The notes beneath the pieces were generated by a model. That model saw only the letters and a list, made by a program, of their open reading frames with translations. It had not been told where the DNA came from and searched no databases. A program made the translations under genes and the position numbers. DNA of 25,510 nt from a virus (taxonomy: Duplodnaviria; Caudoviricetes). Where the stretch lies: positions 1 to 25,510 of the IMG/VR virus record IMGVR_UViG_3300020043_002318; one strand, written 5' to 3'. Of this stretch, positions 8,319 to 24,568 are shown in pieces; the first letter of the stretch is position 1; each line of letters opens with the position of its first letter.

Positions 8319-8647
8319 TATCGTTTCCCGATTCGGCGTTCGTGTCTGTTCTTACTTATCTGACTTGCTGTCGGCTGGTCCCACGAGGCCGCCCGAACGA
8401 TAGCAACCCGACGCATGAACTCAGACGCACTTAGGGAAACTACAGCTTCGTCAGGGGTAATTTTCCACAACTTGGCCATCTCGACAGCCATGAGAACGTC
8501 ATGCTCCCATGACGGCAGCACGTCCGTGCCTGTGATGCGCTTGGGGTAGGGGTTGCCCTGCTCGTCTACTGGCTTAGCCTTGAGAACTTCGTAGTCTTCA
8601 AAGATTTCGGTGACCTTGGCAACCTCAGAGTTTAGCGACGCCTCGAA
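8318..8647 (-). CDS. tail assembly chaperone C-terminal (gpT-like) segment, probably expressed by +1 frameshift
   Basis: The frame of track ORF 8318..8521 stays open upstream to 8653 and overlaps the last codons of 8625..9161 in the +1 frame at AAC TTT CGA. Confidence 0.75.
   Translation of the reverse strand, partial: FEASLNSEVAKVTEIFEDYEVLKAKPVDEQGNPYPKRITGTDVLPSWEHDVLMAVEMAKLWKITPDEAVVSLSASEFMRRVAIVRAASWDQPTASQISKNRHERRIGKR
8434..8470 (-). promoter_or_regulatory. candidate late promoter upstream of tape measure (DnaA box with 1 mismatch)
   Basis: TTGTGGAAAA (box 8469-8461)-N18-TAGTTTCCC; same geometry as the three perfect sites, but inside coding sequence. Confidence 0.45.
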
Positions 8648-9161
8648 AGTTCTTCACTGCGTTAGTCACCTCCGTCAGGTCTTGAACGTCCCAAAAATCA
8701 TTCACCGAGAGAAGTGCCTTCTGTTCCTCTGTGAGCTGGCTGTCGTCCATGATGATCTTGACTATCTCGATGCAGGCCTCGATGGCTTCATCATTATCGA
8801 GCGGAAACTCGGTGACAGGATTGTTTAGGGCCTCCCAGATATTCGGGAAAGACTCCAGCAGTTCGGACTGGATGCGCTGTGTGACCATAGACTGCAGGTC
8901 GCTGTCGGTGATCTGTGGTATCTCGGCTCGTATTTCTGCGCTGAGCTTTGCCGCGTGCTGGCTGTTAGCACCGCCCGACAGGCTCACGATCTTGGATGCG
9001 TTGGGGGACTCCTGCAGGGCTTTCTGGAAAGCCGCGTTCTGGCCTAGGCCTCGGAGCGTTGCGATAGGCTTCTCAACGGCCTTGATGATCTTACGTGAAA
9101 CGATAGACTTGAGAGCCACGTCCTTGGGCTCGCCTGCGAAATATAGTTTGATCGACGGCAT
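8625..9161 (-). CDS. tail assembly chaperone (gpG-like)
   Basis: 178 aa, helical with an acidic C-terminal half; lies between tail tube and tape measure; ends with an overlap into the second frame. Confidence 0.8.
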   Translation of the reverse strand: MPSIKLYFAGEPKDVALKSIVSRKIIKAVEKPIATLRGLGQNAAFQKALQESPNASKIVSLSGGANSQHAAKLSAEIRAEIPQITDSDLQSMVTQRIQSELLESFPNIWEALNNPVTEFPLDNDEAIEACIEIVKIIMDDSQLTEEQKALLSVNDFWDVQDLTEVTNAVKNFRGVAKL

Positions 9162-9180
9162 GTCAGACCTTTACGAAATA

Positions 9181-9234
9181 TACGGCATGGGATAAAATAG
9201 GCAGGGGCCGCCATGCCGCAGAACGGCCCCCACC
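9181..9234 (-). other. structured intergenic RNA: terminator-like hairpin able to form an H-type pseudoknot
   Basis: S1 GGTGGGGGCCG/CGGCCCCTGCC followed by TATTTTAT; loop TGCGGCATGG pairs with downstream CCATGCCGTA. Confidence 0.6.
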
Positions 9235-9251
9235 ATGATAGCCCAGAGGGC

Positions 9252-9827
9252 TTACTTGTATACGACAGTACCGTAAGGAATTGTCGTGAACAGCGTTACA
9301 GGAGCTGTCGAAGTCATGAAGTCAGTGAAGTAGGTCGCAGCAAGCGTAATAGCGCTCTGCAATTTGAATCCTTCAAATGACAGCGTGACTCGATTGTATG
9401 TTTCACCAGCCTGAGTATAACCACCAGACTCGTTGCTGAGGCGCTGAGGGAATACACCAACCTTGCGCGCTGCTGTTCCTGACTCATTTCCGCCTCCGAC
9501 CTTACCACCACGAACAGCTACGATGAGCTTCTTGTTCTGTGCTGATCCTGTCTCTGATGTTCCGTCCTCGAGGAGCAGGTCCTCGATAGCACCAGCACCG
9601 AGATTCGATGCTGACTCGATAAACGCCTGCAGGGCTGCAGTGTCCTCGACGTGCTCGATAGATACCGAATAAGCACCAGAAGCTGCATCACGAGTGACGT
9701 CTGTGCTGATGATGTTGTCGGCAAGTTTGTAGAGTTGCGTGGAACCGACACCTACCGTGCCGGTATCTTCCACAGTCCATGCGGCGAAGACGTTACCGCC
9801 CGCGACGACGCGACGTGATAGTGACAT
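9252..9827 (-). CDS. putative major tail (tube) protein
   Basis: 191 aa; position before chaperone and tape measure; followed by a structured intergenic region; Gly/Ala/Thr-rich beta composition. Confidence 0.7.
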   Translation of the reverse strand: MSLSRRVVAGGNVFAAWTVEDTGTVGVGSTQLYKLADNIISTDVTRDAASGAYSVSIEHVEDTAALQAFIESASNLGAGAIEDLLLEDGTSETGSAQNKKLIVAVRGGKVGGGNESGTAARKVGVFPQRLSNESGGYTQAGETYNRVTLSFEGFKLQSAITLAATYFTDFMTSTAPVTLFTTIPYGTVVYK

Positions 9828-9828
9828 G

Positions 9829-10572
9829 TTACTTGTCCTTTGTTACATAATACATAAATGATCCAGCATCGCGGTGTATCATCTGTGTCCAGTAAATAAG
9901 CTGGGCATCATCCGTACAACCTGCGATCTCTTGTGCCAGCCCCTTGACATTGCGCTTGACTTTGGCCATCATCGAGTCGGCGTCGACTTCATAGCCTACA
10001 TGATGCACAAGTAGGGAGCAGGTTTCTATTGTTAGGCCCTGGCGTTCTATAGACCATCCTATTTGCTCATGTGCAGCACCCTCGAAAGCAAAGCCTTTGT
10101 AATTACGAAACACCCGACAGGTCGGGTTATGGTATCGCATTACACCTTCGTTTCCGTCATGCTTTGGCTGCACTCCCACGCAGCCACACACGAGCCCACC
10201 AACACCTGGTGGGTAAATAGAAAAGTCCTCGAACCACTCGTGCTGATGGGGCAGCAGACGGTCGTCGGCGTCTATCCACATGACCCATTCACGAGAGCAG
10301 AGACCAATGCAGAGGTTGCGAAGATTGGCGAAGTGGAGCTCTTGCCACTGCGTTGCGTAGTACCGCACCACTGTCCCGTTTTTCAACGTGACTGTCTTAC
10401 GCTCTACAACCTCTGGATTGTCACCCTGCTCATTCCACAGTACGACCAACTCGCAACCACTCGGAAGTGTTGCGATCATCTGCATTACATGGTGTGCTTC
10501 GCTCTTGTGAGCTATGCAGGCAAAGGAAATGTCAAGCTGTTTAGAGCTTGAGTTTTGGCTCGTTTCCGACAT
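9829..10572 (-). CDS. glycosyltransferase family 2 (GT-A fold)
   Basis: HFANLRN, EWVMWIDADDRL (DxD), RVFRN...FEGAAHE, HHVGY...KVKRN motifs. Confidence 0.9.
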   Translation of the reverse strand: MSETSQNSSSKQLDISFACIAHKSEAHHVMQMIATLPSGCELVVLWNEQGDNPEVVERKTVTLKNGTVVRYYATQWQELHFANLRNLCIGLCSREWVMWIDADDRLLPHQHEWFEDFSIYPPGVGGLVCGCVGVQPKHDGNEGVMRYHNPTCRVFRNYKGFAFEGAAHEQIGWSIERQGLTIETCSLLVHHVGYEVDADSMMAKVKRNVKGLAQEIAGCTDDAQLIYWTQMIHRDAGSFMYYVTKDK

Positions 10573-10780
10573 ATAAAACGACTTTAGTTTGTGAAGGTTC
10601 GCTAGGAAACTGCCCGATAATTATCTGCTGTATATCACGAACGAAGAACTCCAACACGGTCACACTAGTAACGTCACGAGGCTGATGATCGCTGAACAGG
10701 TCAGAATCTACACGCACGTCTATATCCCCATAGGCTGCATGGATTTGACGTAAATGATTAGATAGTTCGCTTATTCTCAT
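10541..10780 (-). CDS. small hypothetical protein
   Basis: 79 aa, MRISELSNHL...YGDIDV; ATGA-coupled to the upstream gene. Confidence 0.6.
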   Translation of the reverse strand: MRISELSNHLRQIHAAYGDIDVRVDSDLFSDHQPRDVTSVTVLEFFVRDIQQIIIGQFPSEPSQTKVVLYVGNEPKLKL

Positions 10781-11247
10781 GACTGCAGGTATGTAAATGT
10801 TGCCTCGTATAACAGTGCCACCTTGTCGCTCTTGTCATCGACGTAACCAGTGACGGAGTTGGTTTCGATAGCGTGCAGGGTTATGGTGTAACCTTGATTC
10901 GTAGTGTCTGAATACGGCAGAGCAGCCGCGACGTTGTCCATGACGACGTCCAGCTTTTCAGCAAGCACGCCGTGTGCCAGCGCAGCCGTGCCTAGTTCCT
11001 GCGAATCCAAAGGGTTCTTCTGGATAGCATAGCAGCCGATGCGCAGCTTGCGGAGTCCTGGCGTATATCTGGACTCTACTAAGTCTTCAGCGACGTCATC
11101 ACTGATGATGTTCGTGTAGACATTGGCCTTGGTATTGGATAGCACCGTTTCCTTCGTGAACACATTGACAGGGTTCAACGTATAATCTTCAGCGAGCTTC
11201 TCCCGCACAAGGTCGAGGGCTATTTCATATTTAGATGTTTTACTCAT
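10777..11247 (-). CDS. putative tail terminator/completion protein
   Basis: 156 aa; position after the neck protein; ends in a beta strand (YEATFTY) as tail terminators do. Confidence 0.55.
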   Translation of the reverse strand: MSKTSKYEIALDLVREKLAEDYTLNPVNVFTKETVLSNTKANVYTNIISDDVAEDLVESRYTPGLRKLRIGCYAIQKNPLDSQELGTAALAHGVLAEKLDVVMDNVAAALPYSDTTNQGYTITLHAIETNSVTGYVDDKSDKVALLYEATFTYLQS

Positions 11248-11708
11248 GATGATGCGGCCTGTGATAACTTGCGGAGCATGATCTCGATAATCTTCGGTAA
11301 TGTTTCCTTCTCGAAATCCTTGATGGCTGGCGTTATGTACGGTCGTGCCGGTATTGTCGACATCAGGTTCCGCCCTGCTTGCCCGCCATATTCATGGATG
11401 CGGGCATAGGGAATGATATCTAAGTCAATACCCCAGACAAAGGAATAAGTATCTCCAGCCTGCTTGAACTGTGACGAGTTGCCTCGTGCTTTGTAGACTG
11501 TTGCAGCCTTGAACAGGTTACCTGTCACAAGGTTCAATTTCGACGCAGTGCTTGGGTATTTAGGTGCTCTGTTTGTGACGCCATAGTGGTCTGACACGTT
11601 AGCACCGAGAGCCGTCTGGATGCGCTGCGGGTCGAAAGCATCCTTTGCCAGCGTAGGCAGCAGGCCCAAGATATTCCGCACGTACTGGTCGACAGTTATC
11701 ACAGCCAT
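11244..11708 (-). CDS. virion morphogenesis / neck protein (Mu gpG, HK97 gp10-like)
   Basis: TGNL...PYARIHEYGG...IPARPY motifs. Confidence 0.85.
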   Translation of the reverse strand: MAVITVDQYVRNILGLLPTLAKDAFDPQRIQTALGANVSDHYGVTNRAPKYPSTASKLNLVTGNLFKAATVYKARGNSSQFKQAGDTYSFVWGIDLDIIPYARIHEYGGQAGRNLMSTIPARPYITPAIKDFEKETLPKIIEIMLRKLSQAASS

Positions 11709-12277
11709 GCCCTTACAATATACGGTGCAAGTCGAGAACGGAAACGAGCAGTCAGGTCTTTATAGATTGTCGTCGTTGTTGTGCCACCTTCGGCGCTGGC
11801 CACCGACTGCAAACCTAGACGGTTCTCACGACCTGAAAAGTCTGTGTTCTTGAACAGCTCGAGCACCATCTCACCACAGACACTCTTGATGTCGTAGGGA
11901 CAGGTGGCGTCGGTGTAACCTATGGTGACGTTGGCACGCCAGACAGGATAGGTCAGGCCGTCCTCATAGTACACCTGATACACGCCGTCAGCCTTGACGA
12001 TGATAGCACCCGTGGCTGTTGTCCAAGCAGCATCAAGCACGTCTTCCTTGTACTGTAGTGACGACAGCGTCGTGGTCACAGTATACGGCAGCAGTTGCGT
12101 CTGCCCGTTGCTTCCAATGAAGTCGTAGGGACCCGTCTGCTCGACTATCGGCTGTTTGCAAATGCCGTCAATCATTGCACCGGCTTGATTGATGAGGGCC
12201 TGCAGGCGTGTGTCCTGTGAGCTATCCCCGATGTTGAGCCAGTTGGCTTTGAGTTCCGTGACTGTTAGAAGTGCCAT
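11699..12277 (-). CDS. head-tail adaptor (HK97 gp6 / SPP1 gp15-like, extended)
   Basis: N-terminal LLTVTELK..L.I....D..LQALI.QA...I...C; internal GY....P.DIK; C-terminal LAPY. Confidence 0.85.
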   Translation of the reverse strand: MALLTVTELKANWLNIGDSSQDTRLQALINQAGAMIDGICKQPIVEQTGPYDFIGSNGQTQLLPYTVTTTLSSLQYKEDVLDAAWTTATGAIIVKADGVYQVYYEDGLTYPVWRANVTIGYTDATCPYDIKSVCGEMVLELFKNTDFSGRENRLGLQSVASAEGGTTTTTIYKDLTARFRSRLAPYIVRAWL

Positions 12278-12278
12278 C

Positions 12279-12740
12279 TTATTTTATCCCCACGACGTCG
12301 AAAATTGCTTGGTCTGTTATGTTCAGTTCTTTAGGCAGGCGAGCAGACAAGACAAGGTCTTTTGAGAATGTCTTGACATTTACCGCGTCGGCTTGGTTGC
12401 CACCAAGCAAATAGATACTATTCGTCGTTTCACCAGTGTAGAATCCGACGTGGTGGCCACCTTTGCGCTTGAGTATTACGACAGCACCATACTGAAGTGG
12501 TACTTCGTTGCCCCACTTCATCCATGACTTTGCTGCTGCCGACTTGGTAATCGGATAACCAGCACGAGCCATGACCCAATTCACGAACGAAGAACACCAA
12601 GGAACTTCGTCCTGCTTGGCCTTGAGCGTCGTCATGGCATGGTACTCGAGGATGCGAGGGGTATGTGAGGAGATGCCTGTGATCTCTTTCACACCCTTCT
12701 CACCCTCGGCAATCTTAAGCCATGTGTATTTAGGTGTCAA
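12279..12740 (-). CDS. TIGR02594-family NlpC/P60-CHAP-like cell wall hydrolase (probable endolysin)
   Basis: W..IAE.E.GVKE, DEVPWCSSFVNW, SAAAKSW..WG, GHHVGF, LLGGNQ.D.V. Start moved to TTG 12740 (GGAAAGG upstream) rather than track 12842. Confidence 0.85.
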   Translation of the reverse strand: MTPKYTWLKIAEGEKGVKEITGISSHTPRILEYHAMTTLKAKQDEVPWCSSFVNWVMARAGYPITKSAAAKSWMKWGNEVPLQYGAVVILKRKGGHHVGFYTGETTNSIYLLGGNQADAVNVKTFSKDLVLSARLPKELNITDQAIFDVVGIK

Positions 12741-13020
12741 GCTGGTTGCCTTTCCAAGTCTTGTAGGTCTGCCATGCCATTTCTTCGAATAACCTTGTCC
12801 GCTCCTCGTTGTGTTCCTGACCTGTTGCAGCTTCGAAGGCATGAAACCACTCGTGAAGAAACGTCTTTATTTGCGTCTCGTATGTTGTCAGCTTGCCGTC
12901 GATGTGGGTGGCGATGCGAATTGTGTGCTTGTCAGAGTCGCACTCGCCGTAAGCACCGCGCATCTTGCACAGTCTGACACGCCAGGTATGACCTCCGAGT
13001 TTGAACGAAGTGGGGATCAT
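12730..13020 (-). CDS. small HExxH zinc metallopeptidase-like protein
   Basis: 96 aa; IP.SFKLGGHTW.V, YGEC, TFLHEWFHA...E. Confidence 0.75.
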   Translation of the reverse strand: MIPTSFKLGGHTWRVRLCKMRGAYGECDSDKHTIRIATHIDGKLTTYETQIKTFLHEWFHAFEAATGQEHNEERTRLFEEMAWQTYKTWKGNQLDT

Positions 13021-14081
13021 CGTATCTCTCCCCCTATTATCATCTTGTTGTGAACTGTGAAATCGCCTGTGCTGTCAACATCGACGATGGCAAAGCCGTG
13101 ATTCCAGCCGTTTCTGGCCGCATAGTGGGTGTTTAGGTCGCATAGGCAACCCACAGACCACCCACCAATATACGAGCCGTCCAGCGGCTTTCTTATGACG
13201 TCCGTCGATGTTCTGTGTACGTGCCCGACGAGGATGTTCTCGATGGCCTTCATGCGGTAATTTCGTGCCGGTGTTACGCCACCACCACCAAACCACTCGT
13301 GGCCGTGGTCTATCCACAGCTTGCCTGCTGTCATCTTGGCTCTCTTGTCCACCCATTCAATATTCAGAGCCCGCAGCCCCAAGAACTCCTCGAGATGCAC
13401 AGTGCCCTCGAGTTCCTTGGCCTTGCGTGCTATGTACCGTCCGTACCTCTCCTCGTGGTTTCCTTCACGGTACACGATGCGCTGCTTGTCACCGAAGAAC
13501 CGACGCAGATGCTGCAGCATTGCCTTTGCAACGTCCAGCTCCCACTTCCACGAACGACGTGCTTCGACCTTCTCATGGTCGCTCAGGTTGTAGACGTCCA
13601 GCATGTCACCGTTCAAGACAATCACGTCACACTGGCTGTTCTTGAGCGTCTCGATGGCAGTCATATAAGCGCCGTAAAAATTGCCGTCTCCATCACGCTT
13701 GAGATCGTGGAACGGCCAGTGCGCATCACTGATGATGCCAATACGACCAGTCTGCAGTTCGCAGACCTTGTCTTCCCTGAGCTCGCCCTTGATAGGTTCA
13801 AAATCAGGGACAGCACCGCGAGGAATCACCGGCGATTCTATCGCCAGCAGTTCTTCGTCGGCTTGTGCCTGACGTTCGCGGATGCCCTTGAACCCTCTCA
13901 CCTTGCGACCGATGTGCTCGAGGTGTTCCTGCGAGTTTGCGTAGCTGTGAGCGTTTCTTGTCCTGGCCCCTGTAGTTTCCCCGCCTCGACGCTTTGCGTC
14001 GTCTATACGGCCTTTGCGGGCCTGTGAGATAGCATCCTGTGCAATCTCCCACTCTTCGGATGTAAGGCGTGGACGCGGCAT
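13017..14081 (-). CDS. calcineurin-like metallophosphoesterase
   Basis: All five motifs present: SDAH, NGDMLD, GNHE, HGHE, GHVH. Confidence 0.92.
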   Translation of the reverse strand: MPRPRLTSEEWEIAQDAISQARKGRIDDAKRRGGETTGARTRNAHSYANSQEHLEHIGRKVRGFKGIRERQAQADEELLAIESPVIPRGAVPDFEPIKGELREDKVCELQTGRIGIISDAHWPFHDLKRDGDGNFYGAYMTAIETLKNSQCDVIVLNGDMLDVYNLSDHEKVEARRSWKWELDVAKAMLQHLRRFFGDKQRIVYREGNHEERYGRYIARKAKELEGTVHLEEFLGLRALNIEWVDKRAKMTAGKLWIDHGHEWFGGGGVTPARNYRMKAIENILVGHVHRTSTDVIRKPLDGSYIGGWSVGCLCDLNTHYAARNGWNHGFAIVDVDSTGDFTVHNKMIIGGEIR

Positions 14082-14092
14082 GACCTACGGCC

Positions 14093-14257
14093 TTAGTTAT
14101 TAGATGGCTTATCAGCAGAGAAATAGCCGATGGCAAAGAGTGCCAGGGAGATGATCGAGCTTGTTACAATCTCAGGAATGTAAAAGCCCCAGATGGCATG
14201 AACGCCATAGGCAACAGCAGCGACGATTCCCGAGACAGTTGTTTTCCAGTCCTTCAT
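14093..14257 (-). CDS. putative holin (2 TM helices; frame also open upstream to GTG 14461)
   Basis: MKDWKTTVSGIVAAVAYGV...IISLALFAIGYFSADK; AAGGG upstream of ATG 14257; lies near the hydrolase gene. Confidence 0.7.
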   Translation of the reverse strand: MKDWKTTVSGIVAAVAYGVHAIWGFYIPEIVTSSIISLALFAIGYFSADKPSNN

Positions 14258-14297
14258 GAGAAGACCCTTAATGATTGAATACAGGTGTCTAACTATT

Positions 14298-14334
14298 CCG
14301 AATATACTTGGCTTCGCTTTTGAATTATCCACAA
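14298..14334 (-). promoter_or_regulatory. candidate late promoter with perfect DnaA box upstream of holin/lysis block
   Basis: TTGTGGATAA (box 14333-14325)-N18-TATATTCGG. Confidence 0.6.
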
Positions 14335-14441
14335 CCTCGGGCTGCTCCATGTTGAAGGGCAGCCTGTTCACCGGTATCATCGCGCCGAACTCGTGCGGCC
14401 TCTCTATCTTATTCCGCAGCTCGACTCTGGTGATAAGTGGC

Positions 14442-14729
14442 TCACTGTCCAGATTTGACACGTTTATAGACCTTTTTTTGTGGCGGTGGCGTACTCGTCC
14501 GCTCCTCCAACCTTACCAGCCGCTCGATAATTTCTACGATGCGCTGTGTAATTAGCTCGTCGGATTTCTTGAGAGAGATTATTTCTTGCGTCGTGTTGCT
14601 CATAACTTCGTGCATGGCAATCACGTTGTCGCGTGTGTCACGGAAGTCATTGACCAGCGACTTCACCCAGAAACCAATGATCGCGAGCATGGTGCTCATA
14701 ATCACACCGAATAGCATCTCTATCGTCAT
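14442..14729 (-). CDS. membrane protein, N-terminal TM plus coiled coil (lysis-associated?)
   Basis: 95 aa; hydrophobic aa 3-22, heptad region ending ERLVRLEE, basic C-terminus. Confidence 0.6.
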   Translation of the reverse strand: MTIEMLFGVIMSTMLAIIGFWVKSLVNDFRDTRDNVIAMHEVMSNTTQEIISLKKSDELITQRIVEIIERLVRLEERTSTPPPQKKVYKRVKSGQ

Positions 14730-14986
14730 GGCTGTTCTCCAAACAACGGCGGCGCGGGCTTTGGTTCGTATACGATCATGTCCAGTTCCTTAACCCACAA
14801 GAACGTCGGGTTGCTGCAATACGCAATCTCCTCAGCACTCAATACCCAAACGTCGTTGATGTCCTGTATAGGGTTAAAGTATGAGTCCGTTTGGAACGTC
14901 TGGCCTTGCAAGCTCTGCGCTTGCTCGGGTGTAAGAACGCCAACGTAGGTGGCAAGTTCGGCAATGGGGATTTGTGTTAGTTTCAT
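14726..14986 (-). CDS. hypothetical protein, possible fibre partner/chaperone
   Basis: 86 aa acidic protein; ATGA-coupled directly after the lectin-like gene. Confidence 0.6.
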   Translation of the reverse strand: MKLTQIPIAELATYVGVLTPEQAQSLQGQTFQTDSYFNPIQDINDVWVLSAEEIAYCSNPTFLWVKELDMIVYEPKPAPPLFGEQP

Positions 14987-15813
14987 ACGTTGCGTCCTAG
15001 TCTTCGTTGGTAAAGGTCTACGATGTTATACAGGTTCGTTGCGTCGGTGTCGGTGAGACCGTCACCGATGGTGACAAAAGCTAAATTTCTATTTGAATAA
15101 GCGTCTGCTGTGCCTTGATTGTTGCGAGCGCCAACGTATAATTTTCTATTTGTTGTTGTCCATCCGGAGGTACTAGCTGTATTTGATCCGATTTGTGTAT
15201 TGTTTTTAATTACCCGAAAATCATTTAGTCCAGTACGTGTTGCTACATAATAACCTGTACCGTTTGTATTACTTGCTTCAATTTGTGCTGTACGGTACAT
15301 ATATGACAAACAGATATTTTCATAGCCCGGCTCAGAATATCTATTAAGATGCCAGAAATAACCAGTCGAAGACATTCCTCCAATATCACATCCACTAGTT
15401 CCATCTGTTCTACTATAATTTGAATGATGAGTAGAATTTTCAGTAAGATTCGTTGTAGGAATTAAAAACGTATCTGCAAAAGCATTTGTACCATTTGATG
15501 TAACGCCATTGGCATTATGCGTCCACCCTCCCGAAAACGTTAACCGAAAAGCCGCATCTGCATTGCGTGGGTCTTTTAGGTTATACATGTGCGACGTAGC
15601 AGTACCCCCGACAAACGGGTATATCGCTTTCATCTTCGACCACAGCCCAACACGCTTCAACGACCTAACCAAGTTCACGATAGCCCGTTGCTGGTTCGCG
15701 TTGTAAATTTGCGCCGCTTCCAAAAACGCCAGCGCATCACGATCAGTAGACGCTGTTACGCCCTTCGTGAAGTGCTGCTCAATTGTGTTGTATCGTAGCG
15801 AACGAACGCTCAT
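14983..15813 (-). CDS. putative virion fibre protein with concanavalin A/LamG-like domain
   Basis: 276 aa; G.TSNGTNAFADT, KNNTQIG, LYVGARN, GDGLTDTDA.NLY pattern of LamG-like sandwiches. Confidence 0.6.
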   Translation of the reverse strand: MSVRSLRYNTIEQHFTKGVTASTDRDALAFLEAAQIYNANQQRAIVNLVRSLKRVGLWSKMKAIYPFVGGTATSHMYNLKDPRNADAAFRLTFSGGWTHNANGVTSNGTNAFADTFLIPTTNLTENSTHHSNYSRTDGTSGCDIGGMSSTGYFWHLNRYSEPGYENICLSYMYRTAQIEASNTNGTGYYVATRTGLNDFRVIKNNTQIGSNTASTSGWTTTNRKLYVGARNNQGTADAYSNRNLAFVTIGDGLTDTDATNLYNIVDLYQRRLGRNV

Positions 15814-16145
15814 TAGCTAATCTCGCACCCGTAAGCAGAGAACACGAGGTTATTTGCATTTGATGACCGCACTGTTATCACGTCGGTAGCTGCAAGCGTT
15901 ATGCCTAGCGTCAACGTAACGCTGTCATTAGCCGCAACAGTTACGTCGTAGGCAATGTAATGCTGATTTGCTAGGGTTGCGCCTGCGGGTCGGATGGCGA
16001 TGCGGTAGGTGTAGTTGGTTGCGCTGATATTAGCAACGACAATCGTACTTACTACCGTAGATGTTGCACTCGGTACGGTGTAGAGCGTTGTCGCATTGGT
16101 GTCTGCAGGGACGGATTGTCCGAGCACCTTGTAAGTATTTGGCAC
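15813..16145 (-). CDS. small beta-sandwich virion protein
   Basis: GTG start; MPNTYKVLGQ...TTLYTVP...LTLGITLAATDVITVRSS...FSAYGCEIS. Confidence 0.7.
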   Translation of the reverse strand: MPNTYKVLGQSVPADTNATTLYTVPSATSTVVSTIVVANISATNYTYRIAIRPAGATLANQHYIAYDVTVAANDSVTLTLGITLAATDVITVRSSNANNLVFSAYGCEIS

Positions 16146-16917: not shown

Positions 16918-16919
16918 GT

Positions 16920-17366
16920 TTACACCGTTGTGATTATTGTGTCGATGTCGATTAAAATCTTTGTTGCTGTTATTGCTTTTGCTACGTGCACGACGATAGA
17001 ACCACCGCTCGGGGCCGTCTGTGTGAGCACTCCATTAGCGCCTAGGTAGATAGCGCCCTTCGTCCATGACCATGATGCGTCGGAGAGTTCGCCGGTAGTC
17101 TTGACTGTTATCGTCTCGCCTGAGCTGCCAGATGTCGTGCTTACGCCGATGACTACAGCATTCGCTAGTGTGTCAGGTGTTGCATAGACGGCCTGCCCAC
17201 TGCCGTTGGTTGTGATGCACCGCAGTGCAGAGATAGACTCTCCAGCGACGAGGCTGGTGTCAATGTTGGCAGCGACTATACCGCCACTTAATATATCGAG
17301 TGTAATGTCCTGCTCGACAAGATTGACCTGCACTGTGTTGTTCAGTACATTGACCGTCGTGCTCAA
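16920..17366 (-). CDS. putative head fibre/cement protein, paralog-like of 16408..16917
   Basis: TTG start overlapping the upstream TGA; AGESISALR...VIGVS...IYLGANGVLTQTAP. Confidence 0.6.
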   Translation of the reverse strand: MSTTVNVLNNTVQVNLVEQDITLDILSGGIVAANIDTSLVAGESISALRCITTNGSGQAVYATPDTLANAVVIGVSTTSGSSGETITVKTTGELSDASWSWTKGAIYLGANGVLTQTAPSGGSIVVHVAKAITATKILIDIDTIITTV

Positions 17367-17707
17367 GATGTTTGCTCCGAGAGTACAGTTACCAAACCAC
17401 GCAATAGCTCTGTTGTAGTTCCAGAGATCGTAACCTCAAGGTCCCAATTGTAAACCTTGCCGATCGTTAAGCCAGCCGTCGTTGCTGACGTCAGCGAAAT
17501 CGAGAACGTGCCAGCAGCAGCGTTCACAGTCGTAATCGTCAGCGAAGCGGCAAGGGTTCCGTCGATCTCTCGTATCTGACCAGCAAAGCTGTAACCAGAG
17601 ATATTTGTCGTGGCTCCGTTGACCTTATACGTGATCGTCCTCGCAAAGGCAGCGCCCTTGCGAAGTTCTAAATCTACCCTTGCACCTGAACTGGATAACG
17701 TGACCAT
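17363..17707 (-). CDS. beta-sandwich fibre attachment protein (BppU N-terminal / T5 p132-like)
   Basis: DLELRKGAAF...NISGYSFAGQIR...GTFSISLTSATTAGL...YNWDLEV...LLRG.VTV. Confidence 0.65.
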   Translation of the reverse strand: MVTLSSSGARVDLELRKGAAFARTITYKVNGATTNISGYSFAGQIREIDGTLAASLTITTVNAAAGTFSISLTSATTAGLTIGKVYNWDLEVTISGTTTELLRGLVTVLSEQTS

Positions 17708-17717
17708 CTTGATTCCT

Positions 17718-17759
17718 GTGTGCTGACCTCAGAGGCCGAAGCCCCTGAAGTCAAGACAC
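17718..17759 (-). other. stable cUUCGg hairpin after capsid/cement genes
   Basis: TGACTTCAGGGGC-TTCG-GCCTCTGAGGTCA (13 bp incl. 2 GU) plus GTGT/ACAC extension; no U-tract. Confidence 0.75.
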
Positions 17760-18197
17760 TTAGTCCTTGATGATGTTTGCAGCAAGGCCGCGCTCTGTGG
17801 CGCTGTTGATTCCTTCACCGTTGTAAAGTACAGCGATGCAAGAACCGTAGGTTCCTGTAGAACCGTCGCCAGCCGTAGCAACTACGTCAATATAACGCTT
17901 GCGACCTGCGAGGTTTACGAAGAAACCGAAAACCTTGTTGTCGTCCGTTGCTGATGGCAGTGACGGAGCACCTGAAGCGCCATAGACGCAACCTGTAATG
18001 TCTCCGTAAGCTGAATCGTCATCAGCTTCCTGCAGCTTGAGGGCTGCCATTGCAATGTCAGTTGCACCGAGGCTGAAGTAAACTGCGAGCTTGCCGTAGC
18101 CAGCCGTGTCGATGCTGTTAGTTGTAAATGATGCGTTGTCTACGATAGCCGCCGGTGGCGTAACGTTGACAACCTTGACGTTTTGTAGTGCGTTCAT
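17760..18197 (-). CDS. capsid cement/decoration protein (Bbp16-like jelly roll)
   Basis: 145 aa directly after the capsid gene; IDTAGY, KLQEADD, KRYIDVV motifs. Confidence 0.7.
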   Translation of the reverse strand: MNALQNVKVVNVTPPAAIVDNASFTTNSIDTAGYGKLAVYFSLGATDIAMAALKLQEADDDSAYGDITGCVYGASGAPSLPSATDDNKVFGFFVNLAGRKRYIDVVATAGDGSTGTYGSCIAVLYNGEGINSATERGLAANIIKD

Positions 18198-18206
18198 GTT
18201 GTCACC

Positions 18207-19556
18207 TTATGAGTTAATAGTTACGAAACCAACGACAGGACCTGTCTCACGGCTTGCTGCCGTTGCATTGTAATTGCCCATCTCGTGCACCTTGATGTCG
18301 AGATATTGCGTTGCCTTGACATAGATTGTATCTGTGTCAAAGCCCTTGCTTGCATCCTGCTTGATGGCTGTCGTCATGCGATCGCCAAGCGTTGCAGCTT
18401 GTGACAGGTTACCGAACCATGCAAACACTTGAGAGTTTGCATCTGTTCCAGGCATTACATCGACGAACTCAACAGGATAGCCGAACAGACGCTGGCCGAA
18501 TGAACCTGCGAGTTCTGCTGCTGTTGATCCACCCTGTGCATATGCCAGGCGCTCTGCTGTCTCACCGAATGCTACCTTGTTGAAGTACCACTTTGCACCT
18601 GTGAGAGCGTATGTTGGAACCTTGCGCATACCTGCGATGAGGTTGCCCATTGTTACTTCTGCGAACGTGTTGCCAGCACATACCTGAGCAGAACCGAGGT
18701 AACCCTTGTGTGTGTCGTTCGTCCAAGTTCCACCACCGTCTGTGAGGACCTTCTGGAGCTTGCCATAGAGGCCAAGAACACCACCGTATGTAGATGTTGC
18801 GTCGCCAAGGAATCCAGCTTGGTCTTCCTTCTTTGCGAACTGGCGAGCTACCGATTCAGCAAAGCGAAGGCCGAGGTTCTGTGTGCTGTTCATCACGAGT
18901 TCTTCAGAGAGAACTGCGAGGGCATACATCTTCTTAGCGTTCAGTGTTACAGCGTCGAATGACATGTCAGATGATGACAGTGTTCCTGTCTCAGAACCCC
19001 AGTAAGCCGTTACGTCATCACCTGTGCGGAAGATGCGGATCGACTCCGAGCCCATAGGCTCTACACGGACGTTGCGACGGAATGAACCGTATGTGTCCTT
19101 GAGGTTGATGATAAGGCTCGATGTCTCCGTTGGTACGAAGATGCCGCCTGTGGCGTCGTTGCCTTGTGTGTGTGTCTTGTAATCTATGCCAGTGACTTCA
19201 GCGTACTTCTGACGAGCAGCTTCGTTCTGGAGACCACCAACAAAGAGGCCTGTCACGTAAGCCTTATATTCAGCTTCCGGCATGTTTGCCTTTGCTGATG
19301 ACTCACCGACCTTGACGTCTGATGTTTGTGGGAGCTTGTTGACTGCTGTCTTAACTTCAGCAGCACGCTGTGCGTTCTTGGCCTTGATAGCGTCGAACGA
19401 CTTGATCTCTTCGGCTTGTGCCGTCAGGCCGTCGATCTCTTCGTTGAGAGTCTTGGCAGCCTTCACTTCATCCATCGAAGGCTCTGTCTTTGCGAGCAGT
19501 GTTTCAAGCTCGGCAGACTTCGCAACGATGGTGTCGTTGATCTGTTGCAAGTTCAT
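18207..19556 (-). CDS. major capsid protein, HK97 family
   Basis: 449 aa; N-terminal coiled-coil delta domain; GGIFVP, AYWGSE, VTLNAKK, SEEL, EDQAGFLG, RLFGYPV. Confidence 0.95.
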   Translation of the reverse strand: MNLQQINDTIVAKSAELETLLAKTEPSMDEVKAAKTLNEEIDGLTAQAEEIKSFDAIKAKNAQRAAEVKTAVNKLPQTSDVKVGESSAKANMPEAEYKAYVTGLFVGGLQNEAARQKYAEVTGIDYKTHTQGNDATGGIFVPTETSSLIINLKDTYGSFRRNVRVEPMGSESIRIFRTGDDVTAYWGSETGTLSSSDMSFDAVTLNAKKMYALAVLSEELVMNSTQNLGLRFAESVARQFAKKEDQAGFLGDATSTYGGVLGLYGKLQKVLTDGGGTWTNDTHKGYLGSAQVCAGNTFAEVTMGNLIAGMRKVPTYALTGAKWYFNKVAFGETAERLAYAQGGSTAAELAGSFGQRLFGYPVEFVDVMPGTDANSQVFAWFGNLSQAATLGDRMTTAIKQDASKGFDTDTIYVKATQYLDIKVHEMGNYNATAASRETGPVVGFVTINS

Positions 19557-20302
19557 TGTTTGTTCCTTTTGTTTACAATTTGACGCAGGGCTTCCATTTC
19601 CATAGCTGCCTTTGCGTTCACTGGTTGTGCGGACTCGATGAGACCCTTGATGCTTTGCACCGCAGAGGCCAGCGTGTCCATGAGTTCGGTAAGGCGTGTT
19701 ACGTTTGCCGACGATAACGTTCGCCCTTCCTTAAGTCTGATCTCAGCACGTTCGTTCAACCTCGTGACAACACGCTCGACGTCGGCTCCGACGTCAGCAA
19801 GGTCGTCGTTGAGTCCCTTGGCACTGATTAATGCAGTTTCTGAGTTAGCTCCGAAGAGCACAGGAGACCACTCATAAAGTCGCCCCTTGACAAGTTCACG
19901 GGCTCCGTCTGGAGAGTACCCCTCCTCTGTCACGGAGTAGCCTATTGAGAACTCGTCGATGATACCTTCCTTGATGTCGCTGTATGTCTCACGGCCGCGT
20001 TGCGTGTTCATATTGAACTGGCCCTTGATATACAGGCCACCGAGGTCCTTGAGCTTTTCCGGCAGCAGGGCATCACCTGGCATAAGCTCCCGAGCCTCGA
20101 GAGTTTTGGCCACTGGTGTTTTCCAGTCGTGTGCCCATACGCCTTTGGGTAGCTTCGTGCTTAGGGACTCGTCGAAGAATCCAAACTTCACACGGTCACC
20201 ATAGCTATCGACGTTGTTGAATACTGATACAATGGCCTCGATTACACCGTTGTCGCCTTCGGCCTTGGTTTCAATATCAAATGATTTGCGTTCTATCTTC
20301 AT
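19553..20302 (-). CDS. prohead maturation protease, HK97 family
   Basis: SVFNNVDSYGD, WAHD (His), FSIGY (Ser), LYEWSPVLFGAN; C-terminal KEGRTLS.AN extension. Confidence 0.95.
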   Translation of the reverse strand: MKIERKSFDIETKAEGDNGVIEAIVSVFNNVDSYGDRVKFGFFDESLSTKLPKGVWAHDWKTPVAKTLEARELMPGDALLPEKLKDLGGLYIKGQFNMNTQRGRETYSDIKEGIIDEFSIGYSVTEEGYSPDGARELVKGRLYEWSPVLFGANSETALISAKGLNDDLADVGADVERVVTRLNERAEIRLKEGRTLSSANVTRLTELMDTLASAVQSIKGLIESAQPVNAKAAMEMEALRQIVNKRNKQ

Positions 20303-20324
20303 TGTTTACGTTCCCCGTAATGAT

Positions 20325-20361
20325 GCGAACTTGCATAGTGTTCGCGTGTAATTATCCACAA
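20325..20361 (-). promoter_or_regulatory. candidate late promoter with perfect DnaA box upstream of protease/capsid
   Basis: Intergenic; TTGTGGATAA (box 20360-20352)-N18-CAAGTTCGC; a GCGAAC/GTTCGC inverted repeat overlaps it. Confidence 0.7.
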
Positions 20362-20409
20362 TTTGCATGGCTGACCCTGAACATTCTCGCGCTTTCACCT
20401 TGAAACTTC

Positions 20410-22662
20410 TCACACGGCCCTACGAGCTCGTGCGAAACATCGGCAGTTGACGGAATTCTTGGCTGACAGCCCAGGCCCTGCAGGGTAAGGAGTCATCTCA
20501 CCACCCACATTGAACATGCCGTTCTCATCTTCGGCCGTGTCGTGTGCTGCAGCGTGTGCTGGTCGTGCCCCTGCCAAGGCTGCCCATGTTCTTGTGATAC
20601 CACCGATTTCAGCCCACACCGATTTCTGCACCGTGCCGGTCGTCGCTGTTGCTGTCGTGCGACCGATGGCGTTGGCTCTGGACTTGGTGATGTTTGAGAT
20701 CTGGTCGTATATCAGCTTGCTGAGTTCGTCAGCCGATGCCGTCGGATTCGCAAAGATGACCTTCTGCACGTCTGCCTTGAGCGTTGGCACGGTCTCGACT
20801 ATCTTATTGCTTGACTCGAGCTGTCCAGCCTCACGGGCTTTTGCGAACTCACCAGGCTCTGCATCGACTTCCTCTTGACTTAATCGGATGACAAGGTCGA
20901 TCAATTCGTTGCGGTCTTCCTCTGTACCCTGCAGAAACTTCTCAGTCCAGACATCCACGTTGAAATCCTCGGCTTTGGTTTCTATTGCGCCAAGGCTCTT
21001 GGTGTCTCGTAGATACGTCGCCAGTTCCATGGCCACCTTCGACCACGACTTCGCAATGCGATCATCGTAAGGCTTCAGTGCCTCGTCGTACTGCTTACTA
21101 TAAACATGTGAATCTGGATGCTGCAGCCATGTCTTGACGTCGCTCTTAAACAGCGCCTTCTGCTCGTCTTCAGCGTTCATCTGCTCGACTAGCTTTGCAC
21201 TCCAGCGCTGACCAGCATCACCACCCCACAGAGCCCAGGCGATGCGACCGGCAGACGGGAAGCCATCCTGTCCTGGTGACCAGCCCTCGCCTTGTTTGTC
21301 CACCTCGTGCCGTGCAAAGTAACTGTTCATGCGACGGGCTGTATCTGGCGAGATCGCACGGCCATTGCTCAGGTCACGGGCTCTGGCAACACCTACGGCA
21401 GTGCCTCCTCTGTTATACTCACGACGCCACTCAAGGCCCTTGGCAGCTTCGTCACGAACGCCCTTCGGTGGTAGAAAGTCGATGCCTTCATATTGCTTGG
21501 TTTCTACGGAAGGTATACGAAAGCCACGCGCCTCAACAGGCACAGCGCCTCCGTCGCTGGAGTTGTCACCGTTCACATCTGCATCCTGAGTTGACACGGC
21601 CTCGGTCGCAATAGCATCGCCAGCAAGTGCCTGAACTGTAGATAGGTCGAAACCGATCTCGACACCATACTCAGGGATGGCGAGCTGTGAATTGATCTGG
21701 TCGGCAAGCATATTCCAGAACGGAACACGTACCATATTCGTGAAGTCCTTGGACGCCTGCTCAAAGTTACTGTATGTAGATTGAGACAGACCCATATGAG
21801 TCCCTGCAATAATCGGGTGCACCTTGTAAGCACCACAGATACGGGTCTCGTATTGACCGAACGTATCAGACAGCCCGAGCTCGTTCCAGTCAAGGGCCAG
21901 GCGCTTGACGTCCTTCACGCCCCACATGATACCAACGGAACCTCGACGGTCTCCACCATATTTGCGCTTGAACGAACGCTCGGCAAGGCTTACCTGTTCC
22001 GGTGTCAGTTCTTCATCGTAGACCACGATGGTCTTCGGCATGGCGTCGTTCTTGTGAATGTTGAACACCGTGGCACTGGCCTCGTTGTAGCCCTCAATAG
22101 ACTGCGCAGCAAGCTCGACAGGTGAGCCGCCACCAAGTGGCTTCTCTGGGTCATACCAGAAGCCCACGATGTGCACAACGTCTTCCTTCGGTACGGAGTA
22201 GGTTACAGCACCGTTGTAGTAATGATAATAATCAACATCACCCCATCCGTCATTTACAGGCGCGAAATACTTATCTGAATACCACCTAATACCTATCACA
22301 GCACCCGAGGCATTGCGCAGCTTGTAACCGTAGGCATTGCCACCGATGCAGAGGATGGTCATGATCTCTGCCATCGTCACTCGCCACTGGTTACGTGTGA
22401 GCATGGTGACTATAGGGTCGTCATAGCTGTAACCTGATGGAGTGACCACACCGAGTTGTGCCTCGGGCATCATCAGTGAGTAGGTGATAGTGCAGGCCTG
22501 TGCCACAGGGTTAGCCTTCCACATCTTGTAAGCTCCAGACCAGTTTACTATCGGTGTGAAGCTGTGCTTTGTCCATACCTCCTCGAGCGGCATAGGCAGG
22601 TCGTTCTGTGCGACTTGGCCGTCTGGAGAAATGAATGCCTTGATTTGTTGTATAAGTCCCAT
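20410..22662 (-). CDS. portal protein (HK97 family) fused to an uncharacterised domain and a Mu gpF/SPP1 gp7-like head morphogenesis domain
   Basis: GNAY, EDVVHI, G.SPV, ICGAYKVHP, TYSNFEQ portal motifs (aa 1 to about 350); middle RGGTAVG..RARDL...IAWALWGGDAG domain; C-terminal RA..I.RT, W...RPAH, FNVGGE..YP, VNCRC. Confidence 0.9.
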   Translation of the reverse strand: MGLIQQIKAFISPDGQVAQNDLPMPLEEVWTKHSFTPIVNWSGAYKMWKANPVAQACTITYSLMMPEAQLGVVTPSGYSYDDPIVTMLTRNQWRVTMAEIMTILCIGGNAYGYKLRNASGAVIGIRWYSDKYFAPVNDGWGDVDYYHYYNGAVTYSVPKEDVVHIVGFWYDPEKPLGGGSPVELAAQSIEGYNEASATVFNIHKNDAMPKTIVVYDEELTPEQVSLAERSFKRKYGGDRRGSVGIMWGVKDVKRLALDWNELGLSDTFGQYETRICGAYKVHPIIAGTHMGLSQSTYSNFEQASKDFTNMVRVPFWNMLADQINSQLAIPEYGVEIGFDLSTVQALAGDAIATEAVSTQDADVNGDNSSDGGAVPVEARGFRIPSVETKQYEGIDFLPPKGVRDEAAKGLEWRREYNRGGTAVGVARARDLSNGRAISPDTARRMNSYFARHEVDKQGEGWSPGQDGFPSAGRIAWALWGGDAGQRWSAKLVEQMNAEDEQKALFKSDVKTWLQHPDSHVYSKQYDEALKPYDDRIAKSWSKVAMELATYLRDTKSLGAIETKAEDFNVDVWTEKFLQGTEEDRNELIDLVIRLSQEEVDAEPGEFAKAREAGQLESSNKIVETVPTLKADVQKVIFANPTASADELSKLIYDQISNITKSRANAIGRTTATATTGTVQKSVWAEIGGITRTWAALAGARPAHAAAHDTAEDENGMFNVGGEMTPYPAGPGLSAKNSVNCRCFARARRAV

Positions 22663-22677
22663 GATCTTAATAGTTAG

Positions 22678-23850
22678 TTACAGGAATACGACGCCAGCAC
22701 CTTGTGACTTGACTGCTGCCATCTCTGCATATACGAGGGCATCTACCATGTCGTCATGGTTGCCCTCTGGAAAACTTAAAAGCTCCTGCTCAAACGCAGG
22801 GTCTAATCCTCTCACATGTGTAACCAGTAGCTGCTCATACCTTGCCAGCAGCCCGTGAAATCGTGTTACCTTATCACGGTCGGGCTTGACACCCTTGACA
22901 GGTAAGGACGTCTTACGGAGCAGCTCCTGCACGACAGCCACCTGATACTGCACGGCCTCGATGTTGATACGTGACGGGTTCCATTTGGTAGCCAGTGCAT
23001 TGACCGCTCCCACGACTTCATGAAATCCTATCTTACCTCGCCAGATGTCAAGCACGTATCTACGGCCTGACTCCTTATCGTAGCCCACAACAGCAATAGC
23101 AGTATAGTCTGCGCTATCTGATTTCGAGATGGCAAGGTCGACACCCATACCAATCTTCAGGTCGCGAGGCACTTGGTCACTGTTGACATACGTGATCATC
23201 TCACGTTTCACCAAAGCGCCCTGCACATCAACGAACTCGGCAAGGTACTCCTGATTGAACACCACCGTCGGCAGTTCCTTCTGTGCAGCCTCGATCTCGT
23301 CGAGTGATATATACGGATTCACCGAGGTCGGCATCCTAAAGCTGGCATACGTCTCATCTGTCCTGGCACGCTCGAACATCGTGTGGAAGTCGTTGCGTCC
23401 CTTGGGTGTCGAGAAGAAATAGCCGTCACCCTTGTAATCCGTCAGAGTCGGACGTATGGCCTCGTTCCAGGCGTCCATGAACGACCGCACCATAGCGACC
23501 TCATCACACACCGCTCTGGCATACTTACGGCCTCGCACGCTGTCGTAAGCATCCAATGACCAGAAGTCAATCACGCCTCCCGTGGTTAGCATCAGGCGCT
23601 TCTCCTGTTCACTTACCGATGTGGTAATCGGATGCAGGGCCGTCTTTACAGCTTTCCAAACATCAGACAGCATCTTGTATGTCGGTGCAAAGTAAGCACA
23701 CGGCAGGCCCTCGATAGCCTTCTCGATAAGCAGGGCCTCAGCCATTACCGTCTTGCCAAACCTACGACCACAGGCCACAGTGTTAAACCGTCGTCGGTTC
23801 TTAAATATCAGGGCTTGACCAGGGTGGAACTGTGCGTCGATCGTTATCAC
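22678..23850 (-). CDS. terL: terminase large subunit
   Basis: Q-motif HPGQ, Walker A CGRRFGKT, Walker B AVCDE, STPKG, QEYLAEF, nuclease GVDLA...DYTA...HDDMVDA. Confidence 0.95.
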   Translation of the reverse strand: MITIDAQFHPGQALIFKNRRRFNTVACGRRFGKTVMAEALLIEKAIEGLPCAYFAPTYKMLSDVWKAVKTALHPITTSVSEQEKRLMLTTGGVIDFWSLDAYDSVRGRKYARAVCDEVAMVRSFMDAWNEAIRPTLTDYKGDGYFFSTPKGRNDFHTMFERARTDETYASFRMPTSVNPYISLDEIEAAQKELPTVVFNQEYLAEFVDVQGALVKREMITYVNSDQVPRDLKIGMGVDLAISKSDSADYTAIAVVGYDKESGRRYVLDIWRGKIGFHEVVGAVNALATKWNPSRINIEAVQYQVAVVQELLRKTSLPVKGVKPDRDKVTRFHGLLARYEQLLVTHVRGLDPAFEQELLSFPEGNHDDMVDALVYAEMAAVKSQGAGVVFL

Positions 23851-24227
23851 TGCGCTGGCCCTATTGCTATGACCTCAGCATCCTCGATGGCCTTGGGCTC
23901 CTCTGTCGCTGGTGTCAGCAGAATCCTGATGTCTGTCTTGCCGGTAACCTCGGTGGCTGCCTTATCGGTCTGTGCTAGGTGTTGCTTGCCTAACCAGATG
24001 AGCATGGTGTTATCACCACTCAAGGCCTTCTCGATCTGTGTGCTCGCAAGCTGGAACCTGACGTCGTTACGTTCGTTCTCGATCATAAGGCCATAGTCTG
24101 TCTTGAGTTCAGAGACAGGCACGTCACGACCTAACAACACCGAGCACCACCTCGACAGAGCCGTCCACCCGAGCATAGCACGGGCGCGTCTCTTGAGTTC
24201 GGCCTCTTGTGATGGCGTCAAATTCAT
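23847..24227 (-). CDS. terS: putative terminase small subunit
   Basis: Directly upstream of terL (GTGA overlap); A.SGDNTMLIWLGKQ.L.Q.DK motif; start taken at ATG 24227. Confidence 0.7.
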   Translation of the reverse strand: MNLTPSQEAELKRRARAMLGWTALSRWCSVLLGRDVPVSELKTDYGLMIENERNDVRFQLASTQIEKALSGDNTMLIWLGKQHLAQTDKAATEVTGKTDIRILLTPATEEPKAIEDAEVIAIGPAQ

Positions 24228-24229
24228 GC

Positions 24230-24266
24230 GGTAAAATATCGCAATGGCTCTGGTATTTATCCACAA
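24230..24266 (-). promoter_or_regulatory. candidate late promoter with perfect DnaA box upstream of terS
   Basis: Intergenic; TTGTGGATAA (box 24265-24257)-N18-TATTTTACC-GC-ATG. Confidence 0.7.
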
Positions 24267-24268
24267 CC

Positions 24269-24568
24269 TCACAGCCCATGCACTAGCTGTGCATAGTTGA
24301 CGCCTCGTATCTGTGCTACAACGCTGCGGATGTCTGCATACAGCAGAATACCGTCCTCAATTGCACGGATGCCATGCAAGACAGTGGTGTGGTGTTTCTT
24401 GCTGTGCTGTGCTATGGTAGTCAGCGACCAGCCGTAATGCTTACTCAGCACATACCAGGTAATCGAGCGTGCTCTGACGGCTCCAGCTTTCCTGTTGTTG
24501 GCATACACTTCCTCGGGCGTAACACCGAGCAGGTGGCAGACGTCGGCAAGGATCATATCGTATATCAT
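24269..24568 (-). CDS. stand-alone DnaA domain IV (Bac_DnaA_C)-like HTH protein
   Basis: 99 aa from ATG 24568 (TAATG overlap); I...V.....V....V....R....V.AR.I..Y......SL..IA......HTTVLH....IE matches DnaA C-terminal domain consensus; no AAA+ domain. Confidence 0.85.
   Translation of the reverse strand: MIYDMILADVCHLLGVTPEEVYANNRKAGAVRARSITWYVLSKHYGWSLTTIAQHSKKHHTTVLHGIRAIEDGILLYADIRSVVAQIRGVNYAQLVHGL

Follow-up and report, generated by a model that had tools for sequence, protein, structure and literature searches.

The window analysed here is a 25.5-kb stretch (25,510 nucleotides, nt) of a partial tailed-phage genome, IMG/VR record IMGVR_UViG_3300020043_002318, in which all annotated genes lie on the minus strand. 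The last gene before the putative terminase small subunit gene (terS) encodes a stand-alone DnaA domain IV protein of 99 amino acids (aa), and four DnaA boxes are found on the same strand. We consider it probable that the 99-aa protein binds these boxes and switches on the packaging, capsid, lysis and tail promoters in place of a missing −33 element. Established below are the fold of the protein, the position of its gene, how the boxes are oriented, spaced and conserved, and the agreement between helix and motif in each lineage. An activator had already been proposed in the original prediction, and it is supported by comparison, as the recognition helix and the upstream motif change together across distant lineages; activation and a contact with sigma are inferred.

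DnaA boxes in the −33 region of predicted late promoters

The four boxes had been predicted to lie on one strand, each 18 nt before a particular 9-mer, and all were re-located in the window. Site 1 (24231..24265, minus strand) consists of the box TGTGGATAA (24265-24257), 18 nt and the −7 element TATTTTAC (24238-24231), with transcription predicted to start near 24226, where the start codon of terS lies. Site 2 (20326..20360, minus strand) is intergenic, with the box at 20360-20352, 18 nt and the −7 element CAAGTTCG; its predicted +1 near 20321 would give a short leader with GGGGA ahead of the protease start at 20302. Site 3 (14299..14333, minus strand) has its box at 14333-14325, followed after 18 nt by the −7 element TATATTCG, and lies within the open reading frame (ORF) 14093-14461; downstream of it in the same frame is an ATG at 14257 (putative holin part; predicted +1 near 14294). 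Site 4 (8435..8469, minus strand) falls within the second tail-chaperone frame (8318-8521) and combines the box TGTGGAAAA (8469-8461), 18 nt and the −7 element TAGTTTCC; its predicted +1 near 8430 is 112 nt before the tape-measure start at 8318. The +1 positions were derived from the location of the TAnnTTTG element at −12 to −5 in Flavobacterium (PMC9723704); RNA runs yielded contigs and no transcription starts.

The box is TTATCCACA at sites 1-3 and TTTTCCACA at site 4, giving the joint pattern TTGTGGAWAA, and this layout of four sites is not due to chance. The 10-mer TTGTGGATAA is expected 0.03-0.04 times per window (Markov orders 0-4). In 300 order-3 Markov simulations, TTGTGGAWAA occurred with a mean of 0.057 and never in two copies, and the arrangement box-N18-YAnnTT did not occur at all. 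The loose consensus TTWTNCACA alone was mildly enriched (5 seen against a mean of 1.9, with 6 of 100 shuffles reaching 5); the signal is therefore the exact box and its phasing.

As for the downstream element, the predicted N18 spacing held, and the element type was corrected from an E. coli −10 to a Bacteroidota-type −7. The promoter consensus of Bacteroidota is given as TTG-N17-23-TAnnTTTG (10.1101/172254), and of this the late sites keep the −7 part only. The predicted early promoter TTGACA-N18-TATTTTTG (970..1001, minus strand) was found at 1001-970 with a terminator just upstream; it fits the Bacteroidota-type primary-sigma consensus and serves as a comparator without an activator. Relative to this promoter, the clade-A late −7 elements are degenerate. 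On the −7 register the box spans about −39 to −31, so that the whole TTGACA position of the early promoter is covered. The early promoter form TTGAC(T/A)-N18-TAnnTTTG was found at the same place in G001 and G008, and with a shorter spacer in G007; it was not picked up there in the remaining genomes scanned.

Ten relatives were obtained whole or nearly whole and scanned with one mismatch allowed. Sites on the sense strand were present at all four places (terS, protease, the putative holin and the tail chaperone) in the window and in G001, G003, G004 and G005, which are all five of the clade-A genomes (G003 and G004 each had a single additional antisense match); the six genomes from other lineages had none. 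The check proposed with the prediction was thus passed, as sister genomes keep the box, its orientation and the N18 spacing at all four places. Among ten distinct sequences of the terS site, TTGTGGATAA and TA..TT were kept and the spacer differed at nearly every position. An extended 12-mer shared by the boxes had also been proposed; in sister lineages, G stands at its 11th base in the terS site.

That the sites precede late modules was borne out too, with the corrections that site 3 is inside an open frame, site 4 is inside the second tail-chaperone frame and the "holin" matched nothing in Pfam, PHROG or NCBIfam. The peptides encoded at sites 3 and 4 are VVDN and LWK, and site 4 requires codons that are minority choices (Leu TTG 7%, Lys AAA 23%). 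In G003-G005, site 3 is the one-mismatch form TGTTGATAA-N18-TATGTTGC, despite an altered encoded peptide. Judged from these sequences, sites 3 and 4 are probably real in clade A and weaker than sites 1 and 2. Site 3 would permit a shorter holin-region product from the internal ATG at 14257; the part beginning MKDWKTT is what we take to be the holin. The preceding part of ORF 14093-14461 is a 68-codon N-terminal extension, open in 7/7 relatives that cover it and low in sequence conservation.

An independent check of the register came from terS, whose start codon in the window is 11 nt from the first base of the −7 element. This distance is 11-15 nt in 12/14 representatives, and exactly 12 in nine of them, which places the start codon at the predicted +1. 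We infer that the terS message is leaderless, which would make packaging dependent on the late switch. In lineages E and F, terS has a 30-nt leader carrying a Shine-Dalgarno-like run. An extra gene was observed between the terS promoter and terS in L163, L196, L200 and G009 (some genomes of A2 and E), with the motif kept ahead of the extra gene.

A stand-alone DnaA domain IV protein

The gene for the 99-aa protein (24269..24568, minus strand) has a Shine-Dalgarno-like GGGGGA upstream, and its upstream neighbour in the lineages examined is a VRR-NUC nuclease gene. The protein matches PF08299 (Bac_DnaA_C) with an E-value of 6.4e-16 and 58.6 bits against a cut-off of 31.5. An AlphaFold2 model from a 21-sequence input had a predicted local distance difference test score (pLDDT) of 94, and the best Foldseek matches were DnaA domain IV on DNA, 3PVP and 1J1V (template-modelling score 0.78-0.79, root-mean-square deviation 1.4). 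R26 and the helix KHHTTVLHG align with the basic-loop Arg and the signature helix of the solved DnaA chains, with Asp replaced by His; we take these to be the equivalents of E. coli R399 and D433-H439. The roles of R399 and T435 in DnaA are treated in PMC9638019. A basic-loop Arg together with a DHTTV-type helix was found in the window protein and not in lineages B-I.

The possibility that the protein is a DnaA replication initiator was rejected, as it is 99 aa long, has no AAA+ domain III and scored 43-44 bits where the cut-offs are 344-410. The relatives with complete genomes measure 32-34 kb and encode their own primase-helicase. The domain tree was poorly resolved: a single origin of the phage family was neither rejected (p-AU 0.44) nor demonstrated, and the phage proteins did not nest within candidate-host DnaA. 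Among 64 early ORFs of four genomes there was no sigma factor, integrase or conserved second regulator; two weak DNA-binding matches there were below the cut-off and lineage-limited. In the protein library, P0009, P0010, P0014, P0019 and P0071 carry 3 to 14 tandem DnaA-domain-IV-like stretches. No relatives of P0016 were found in viral_contigs.

Helix and motif change together across lineages

A terminase search gave 188 confirmed loci, of which the best 80 were taken; 82 loci were read with the window and a further search included, some of them on the same contig. The helix and motif patterns of the six lineages were written after the sequences had been seen. Distant lineages (terL 65-69%) retain the DnaA-domain gene ahead of terS, with other helices and other upstream motifs: lineage B has the helix ERQPV and the motif GGTGCAAAA-N18, lineage C has WRLATV and CTAACATATCA-N22, and lineage D has FHRVTI and TGTGTAAAW-N20, while the helices of lineages E and F are WNRITV and QSRLTV. 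In lineages B-F, the 3' end of the gene for the predicted activator runs into the site. Three further lineages (L249, L285 and L288) have new helices with new upstream sequence, and no protease region for pairing.

The class of the terS motif was the class of the helix in 75/75 loci with a readable helix (seven had none), and the terS and protease motif classes agreed in 45/45 loci having both regions, again across the six lineages. Two less circular tests were applied. An unanchored best-segment comparison of the terS and protease regions beat dinucleotide shuffles in 10/11 representatives (0-4 of 150 shuffles) and set A and B apart from the rest. In a −7-anchored test, with anchors derived from the motifs, the true pairing of the six lineages was the best of 720 permutations for the upstream zone and 43rd for the spacer. 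The clade-B box had exactly two copies in 2/2 clade-B genomes and none in the other nine.

TerS itself as the reader of the motif was rejected. Lineages D and E have TerS proteins that are 85% identical, DnaA domains that are 31% identical and different motifs, and two members of E have TerS proteins that are 65% identical, DnaA domains that are 100% identical and the same motif; the motif therefore follows the DnaA-like protein and not TerS. The point we regard as decisive is that the only lineage with a DnaA-like helix is also the only lineage with the canonical box. There is strong comparative support for protein and site being a cognate pair. A third GGTGCAAAA copy was observed upstream of VRR-NUC in clade B (G008 position 12800; L165, L173), without a −7 element at 18 nt; it is a possible autoregulatory site.

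Relation to known regulators

DnaA-domain activators are known from gene transfer agents (GTAs). GafY (HdaB, CCNA_01111) of Caulobacter crescentus is a DnaA-domain-IV homologue that binds and activates many GTA promoters (PMC9632790). It is reported to bind RpoD domains 3-4 from a site at −123..−113, to need integration host factor and to compensate for a degenerate −35 (PMC11150451), and PMC7049699 describes it as having no Arg399 equivalent. The N-terminal DnaA-like domain of GafA from Rhodobacter capsulatus is required for GTA activation (PMC9638019), and GafA homologues were noted in roseophages (PMC6363796). The claim that the system was undescribed can therefore not be kept as made, as GafY/HdaB and GafA are already known DnaA-domain-IV activators of terS-led GTA operons.

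The phage protein resembles GafY and GafA in having a DnaA domain IV without an AAA+ domain and a terS-led head-tail cluster as its target, with activation being predicted here. In contrast, GafY and GafA are chromosomal alphaproteobacterial regulators, paired or fused with GafZ, whereas this is a phage gene beside terS; no Pfam match to a GafZ-like partner (DUF6456, sigma-like) was found in 38 window ORFs or in the 64 early ORFs of four relatives. The GafY site is far upstream, at −123..−113, with no derived consensus, whereas here a canonical box lies at about −39..−31 over the −33 hexamer of Bacteroidota-type promoters. Finally, the phage protein keeps the basic-loop Arg for which GafY has no equivalent, and lineage-specific pairs of helix and box are found here.

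The late transcriptional regulators (Ltr) RinA, ArpU, LtrC and LtrD are encoded by a small gene that closes the early cluster, directly ahead of terS (PMC3753634), and the 99-aa gene has the same genomic position. They belong to other protein families and to Gram-positive temperate phages under cI control, with repeat arrays at one promoter (PMC3753634). Here, by contrast, there is a DnaA fold, single 9-mers at up to four promoters, and no integrase or repressor was found. When RinA, ArpU, LtrC and LtrD sequences and a repeat array at terS were looked for, only PF08299 matched and a single box was present at terS. With T4 MotA/AsiA, where an activator box replaces the −35 at a fixed spacing to the downstream element (PMC6755090), the likeness is the box in the −35 place at fixed spacing. 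MotA, however, serves middle genes, has an unrelated fold and needs AsiA, whereas no co-activator was identified here. Phage promoters of alphaproteobacteria reportedly carry sites for CtrA, a host cell-cycle regulator. Unlike that case, the phage here supplies its own reader, and the host-type site occurs in one of the six lineages with paired sites.

By these comparisons the phage system is GafY-like, in the Ltr position and with MotA-like geometry, yet falls outside each of the three. We count GafY, the Ltr position and the MotA box over −35 as precedents for an activator. In the full-text literature searched, which includes few subscription papers, no phage DnaA-domain late activator and no DnaA boxes at phage late promoters were found. 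Nor was there a published account of the setting in a phage, of a canonical box over −33 or of a series in which helices and boxes co-vary; given GafY and GafA, the idea itself is not wholly new.

The proposed role would provide, at least in this family, a testable job for a widespread phage gene whose usual annotation is replication initiator (the DnaA-C profile matched 1,824 clusters, and viral members make up 76-95% of the nearest Atlas clusters). The lineages form a natural series of DnaA-domain-IV variants, each with predicted sites, that could be a route to the recognition code of the domain and a potential source of orthogonal activator-promoter pairs for Bacteroidota. It would also be a phage counterpart for GafY, whose site consensus was not derivable, and a clean test case for cross-talk of host DnaA with phage late transcription.

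Range and candidate host

No DnaA-C gene was found in 66 of the 74 terL loci with more than 1,200 nt upstream, the other eight being family members. Three cultured phages carry DnaA-C genes (Mae-JY35, phi19:3 and HTVC100P), and in phi19:3 and HTVC100P the gene is not directly ahead of terS. As these 66 loci are without the gene and the three cultured phages without an exact box, the pairing is shown for this family only. A collection-wide scan for box-N18-TAnnTT gave an estimated ~1,400 matches and was set aside as mostly chance, the gene being present in 4/120 loci read, all of this family.

A capsid search of genome_contigs gave no match. In the candidate order, the capsid was matched in 1/201 (32% identity), and the window DNA gave short 64-91% matches in 15/254 genomes, with no close DNA link; a 34-bp match was observed in G039. 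The family contig L285 was binned in genome G019, and binning may err. The only primary sigma of G019 is 287 aa long and shares 70% identity with the one in a named Bacteroidota genome; G019 also has a canonical DnaA with the DHTTVLH helix and a canonical box upstream of its dnaA gene. Its lineage is, as a guess, Kapabacteria-like. Ahead of its tRNA-Gly gene lies TTGAC(A/T)-N18-TATGTTTG, as at 8/10 sites checked in relatives; across the whole of 41 candidate-host genomes, TTGACN-N18-TAnnTTTG showed no enrichment (51 occurrences, with 58 for a reversed control). In L380 (1356-1625) of G019, DnaA boxes were observed just upstream of the tRNA-Gly promoter, possibly as part of an origin region.

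Proposed mechanism and alternative explanations

It is proposed that the 99-aa protein accumulates from the early operon and binds each box in one orientation, its helix placed over TGTGG (about −39 to −35) and its basic loop over ATAA (about −34 to −31). This follows the DnaA-DNA geometry, in which the helix reads the upstream TGTGG half and the basic loop reads the ATAA half from the minor groove, and which could leave room for sigma region 4. The bound protein would contact sigma region 4, as GafY does RpoD, and recruit the host sigma. The holoenzyme could then fire promoters with a weak −7 element and no −33 element.

Several observations weigh against this mechanism. The 75 matching loci represent six lineages and not 75 independent cases, since kin share traits. 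In the unanchored comparison, the A2 pair was reached by 14/150 shuffles, which is not significant alone, and the motifs of C-F are cross-similar (cross scores up to 17 against diagonals of 11-18). Compared with A and B, the shared motif of C and E is displaced upstream by 6-8 nt, giving no single geometry, and lineages C-I have a perfect −7 element at terS, where an activator might be unneeded. Sites 3 and 4 are within coding sequence; counterparts of them were not found for clade B and not seen in C-E. No exact box was found in the three cultured phages with DnaA-C genes, where relaxed boxes did not exceed expectation. All genes are on one strand, with no terminator called between the early region and terS, so that read-through is possible, and the host is hinted at and unproven.

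A wider version of the activator proposal holds that a captured DnaA domain became a late activator family, in which clade A reads the host box, host DnaA competes and virion production is gated on replication state, the sister lineages having escaped through orthogonal helix/box pairs. This is possible and, in our view, doubtful. If this is true, GafY and GafA, the activators of GTAs, would descend from an ancestor of this phage-activator kind. The original prediction allowed that host DnaA could compete or repress; as the canonical box is confined to one lineage, such a role cannot be general, and it has no direct support.

The protein could also be the cognate reader and act as a repressor, with promoters firing from the −7 alone and late genes held off until genome copies titrate the protein over −33. 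A protein on the −33/−35 region usually blocks polymerase. That blocking is usual there is also argued in 10.1101/172254, and the perfect −7 elements at terS in lineages C-I would suit such promoters. However, there is no TTGAC beneath the box to occlude, the clade-A −7 elements are degenerate compared with the early promoter, and the fixed orientation and spacing suit contact with polymerase. In addition, an early-operon product rises over time, and GafY and the Ltr proteins activate. A repressor is therefore very unlikely.

Another explanation is that host DnaA is a main reader of the clade-A boxes, activating or blocking, in competition with the phage protein, so that late expression would depend on the replication state of the host. 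The clade-A box is a canonical DnaA box that host DnaA could bind, and the DnaA of the candidate host has the DHTTVLH helix and the same box upstream of its own gene. Five sister lineages, however, use the same layout with non-canonical motifs, making host DnaA dispensable for the design; the sites are single and not clustered, and the canonical box may be merely an ancestral specificity. We think it very unlikely that host DnaA is a main reader.

The boxes could serve packaging or replication (as a TerS pac signal, an origin or a DnaA sink), with the protein acting on host replication as proposed for HdaB. Site 1 adjoins terS, and HdaB overproduction is reported to disturb initiation through HdaA (PMC7049699). 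The boxes, however, are kilobases apart and phased to −7 elements, the D/E and within-E comparisons separate the motif from TerS, a primase-helicase is encoded by the phages themselves, and GafY/HdaB was later assigned to transcription (PMC9632790), leaving this role highly improbable. Chance or a coding artefact, to which the peptides encoded at sites 3 and 4 and the mostly unrelated matches of the collection-wide scan could point, is barely credible given 0/300 simulations, conservation at four places in five genomes and the minority codons required, and for sites 1 and 2 chance was already unlikely.

Other features of the window

The gene order is VRR-NUC nuclease, 99-aa gene, terS, terL, portal, protease, HK97 capsid, decoration/fibre genes and lysis region; the neck, tail and tape-measure genes come next, and a terminator separates them from the beginning of the early region. 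The VRR-NUC nuclease (24568..25038, minus strand, as are all features below) was assigned from PF08774 below the cut-off, phrog_93 and synteny. The putative, predicted leaderless terS (23847..24227) was assigned from its position ahead of terL and had no Pfam, PHROG or NCBIfam family match. It is followed by the terminase large subunit (22678..23850; PF03237, PF17289) and a portal fused to a head-morphogenesis domain (20410..22662; PF04860, phrog_2662, phrog_2859, phrog_2468), in which a phrog_2859 insert occupies residues ~391-511; both insert and fusion differ between relatives. The prohead protease (19553-20302) and the HK97-type major capsid protein (18207-19556) form a pair (18207..20302) with PF04586 / PF05065 evidence. 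The tape measure protein is at 4869..8318 (PF10145, phrog_991), and an intrinsic-terminator-like hairpin with an 11-pair stem and T9 run (1022..1059) marks the end of the late region before the early promoter. No Rfam match was found.

Metallophosphoesterase and CHAP endolysin genes lie downstream of site 3. The metallophosphoesterase of the lysis region (13017-14081), which has a long N-terminal extension, and a family-2 glycosyltransferase among the neck/tail genes (9829-10572) are kept across lineages. The tail-chaperone stop (8620-8636) lies within a conserved CT(A/C)AACTCTGA run (ten relatives compared, nine covered), and the +1 frame past this stop stays open into the ORF 8318-8521. For the tail chaperone, programmed frameshifting at a shifty stop is therefore likely to be +1 or −2, where −1 is the usual type.

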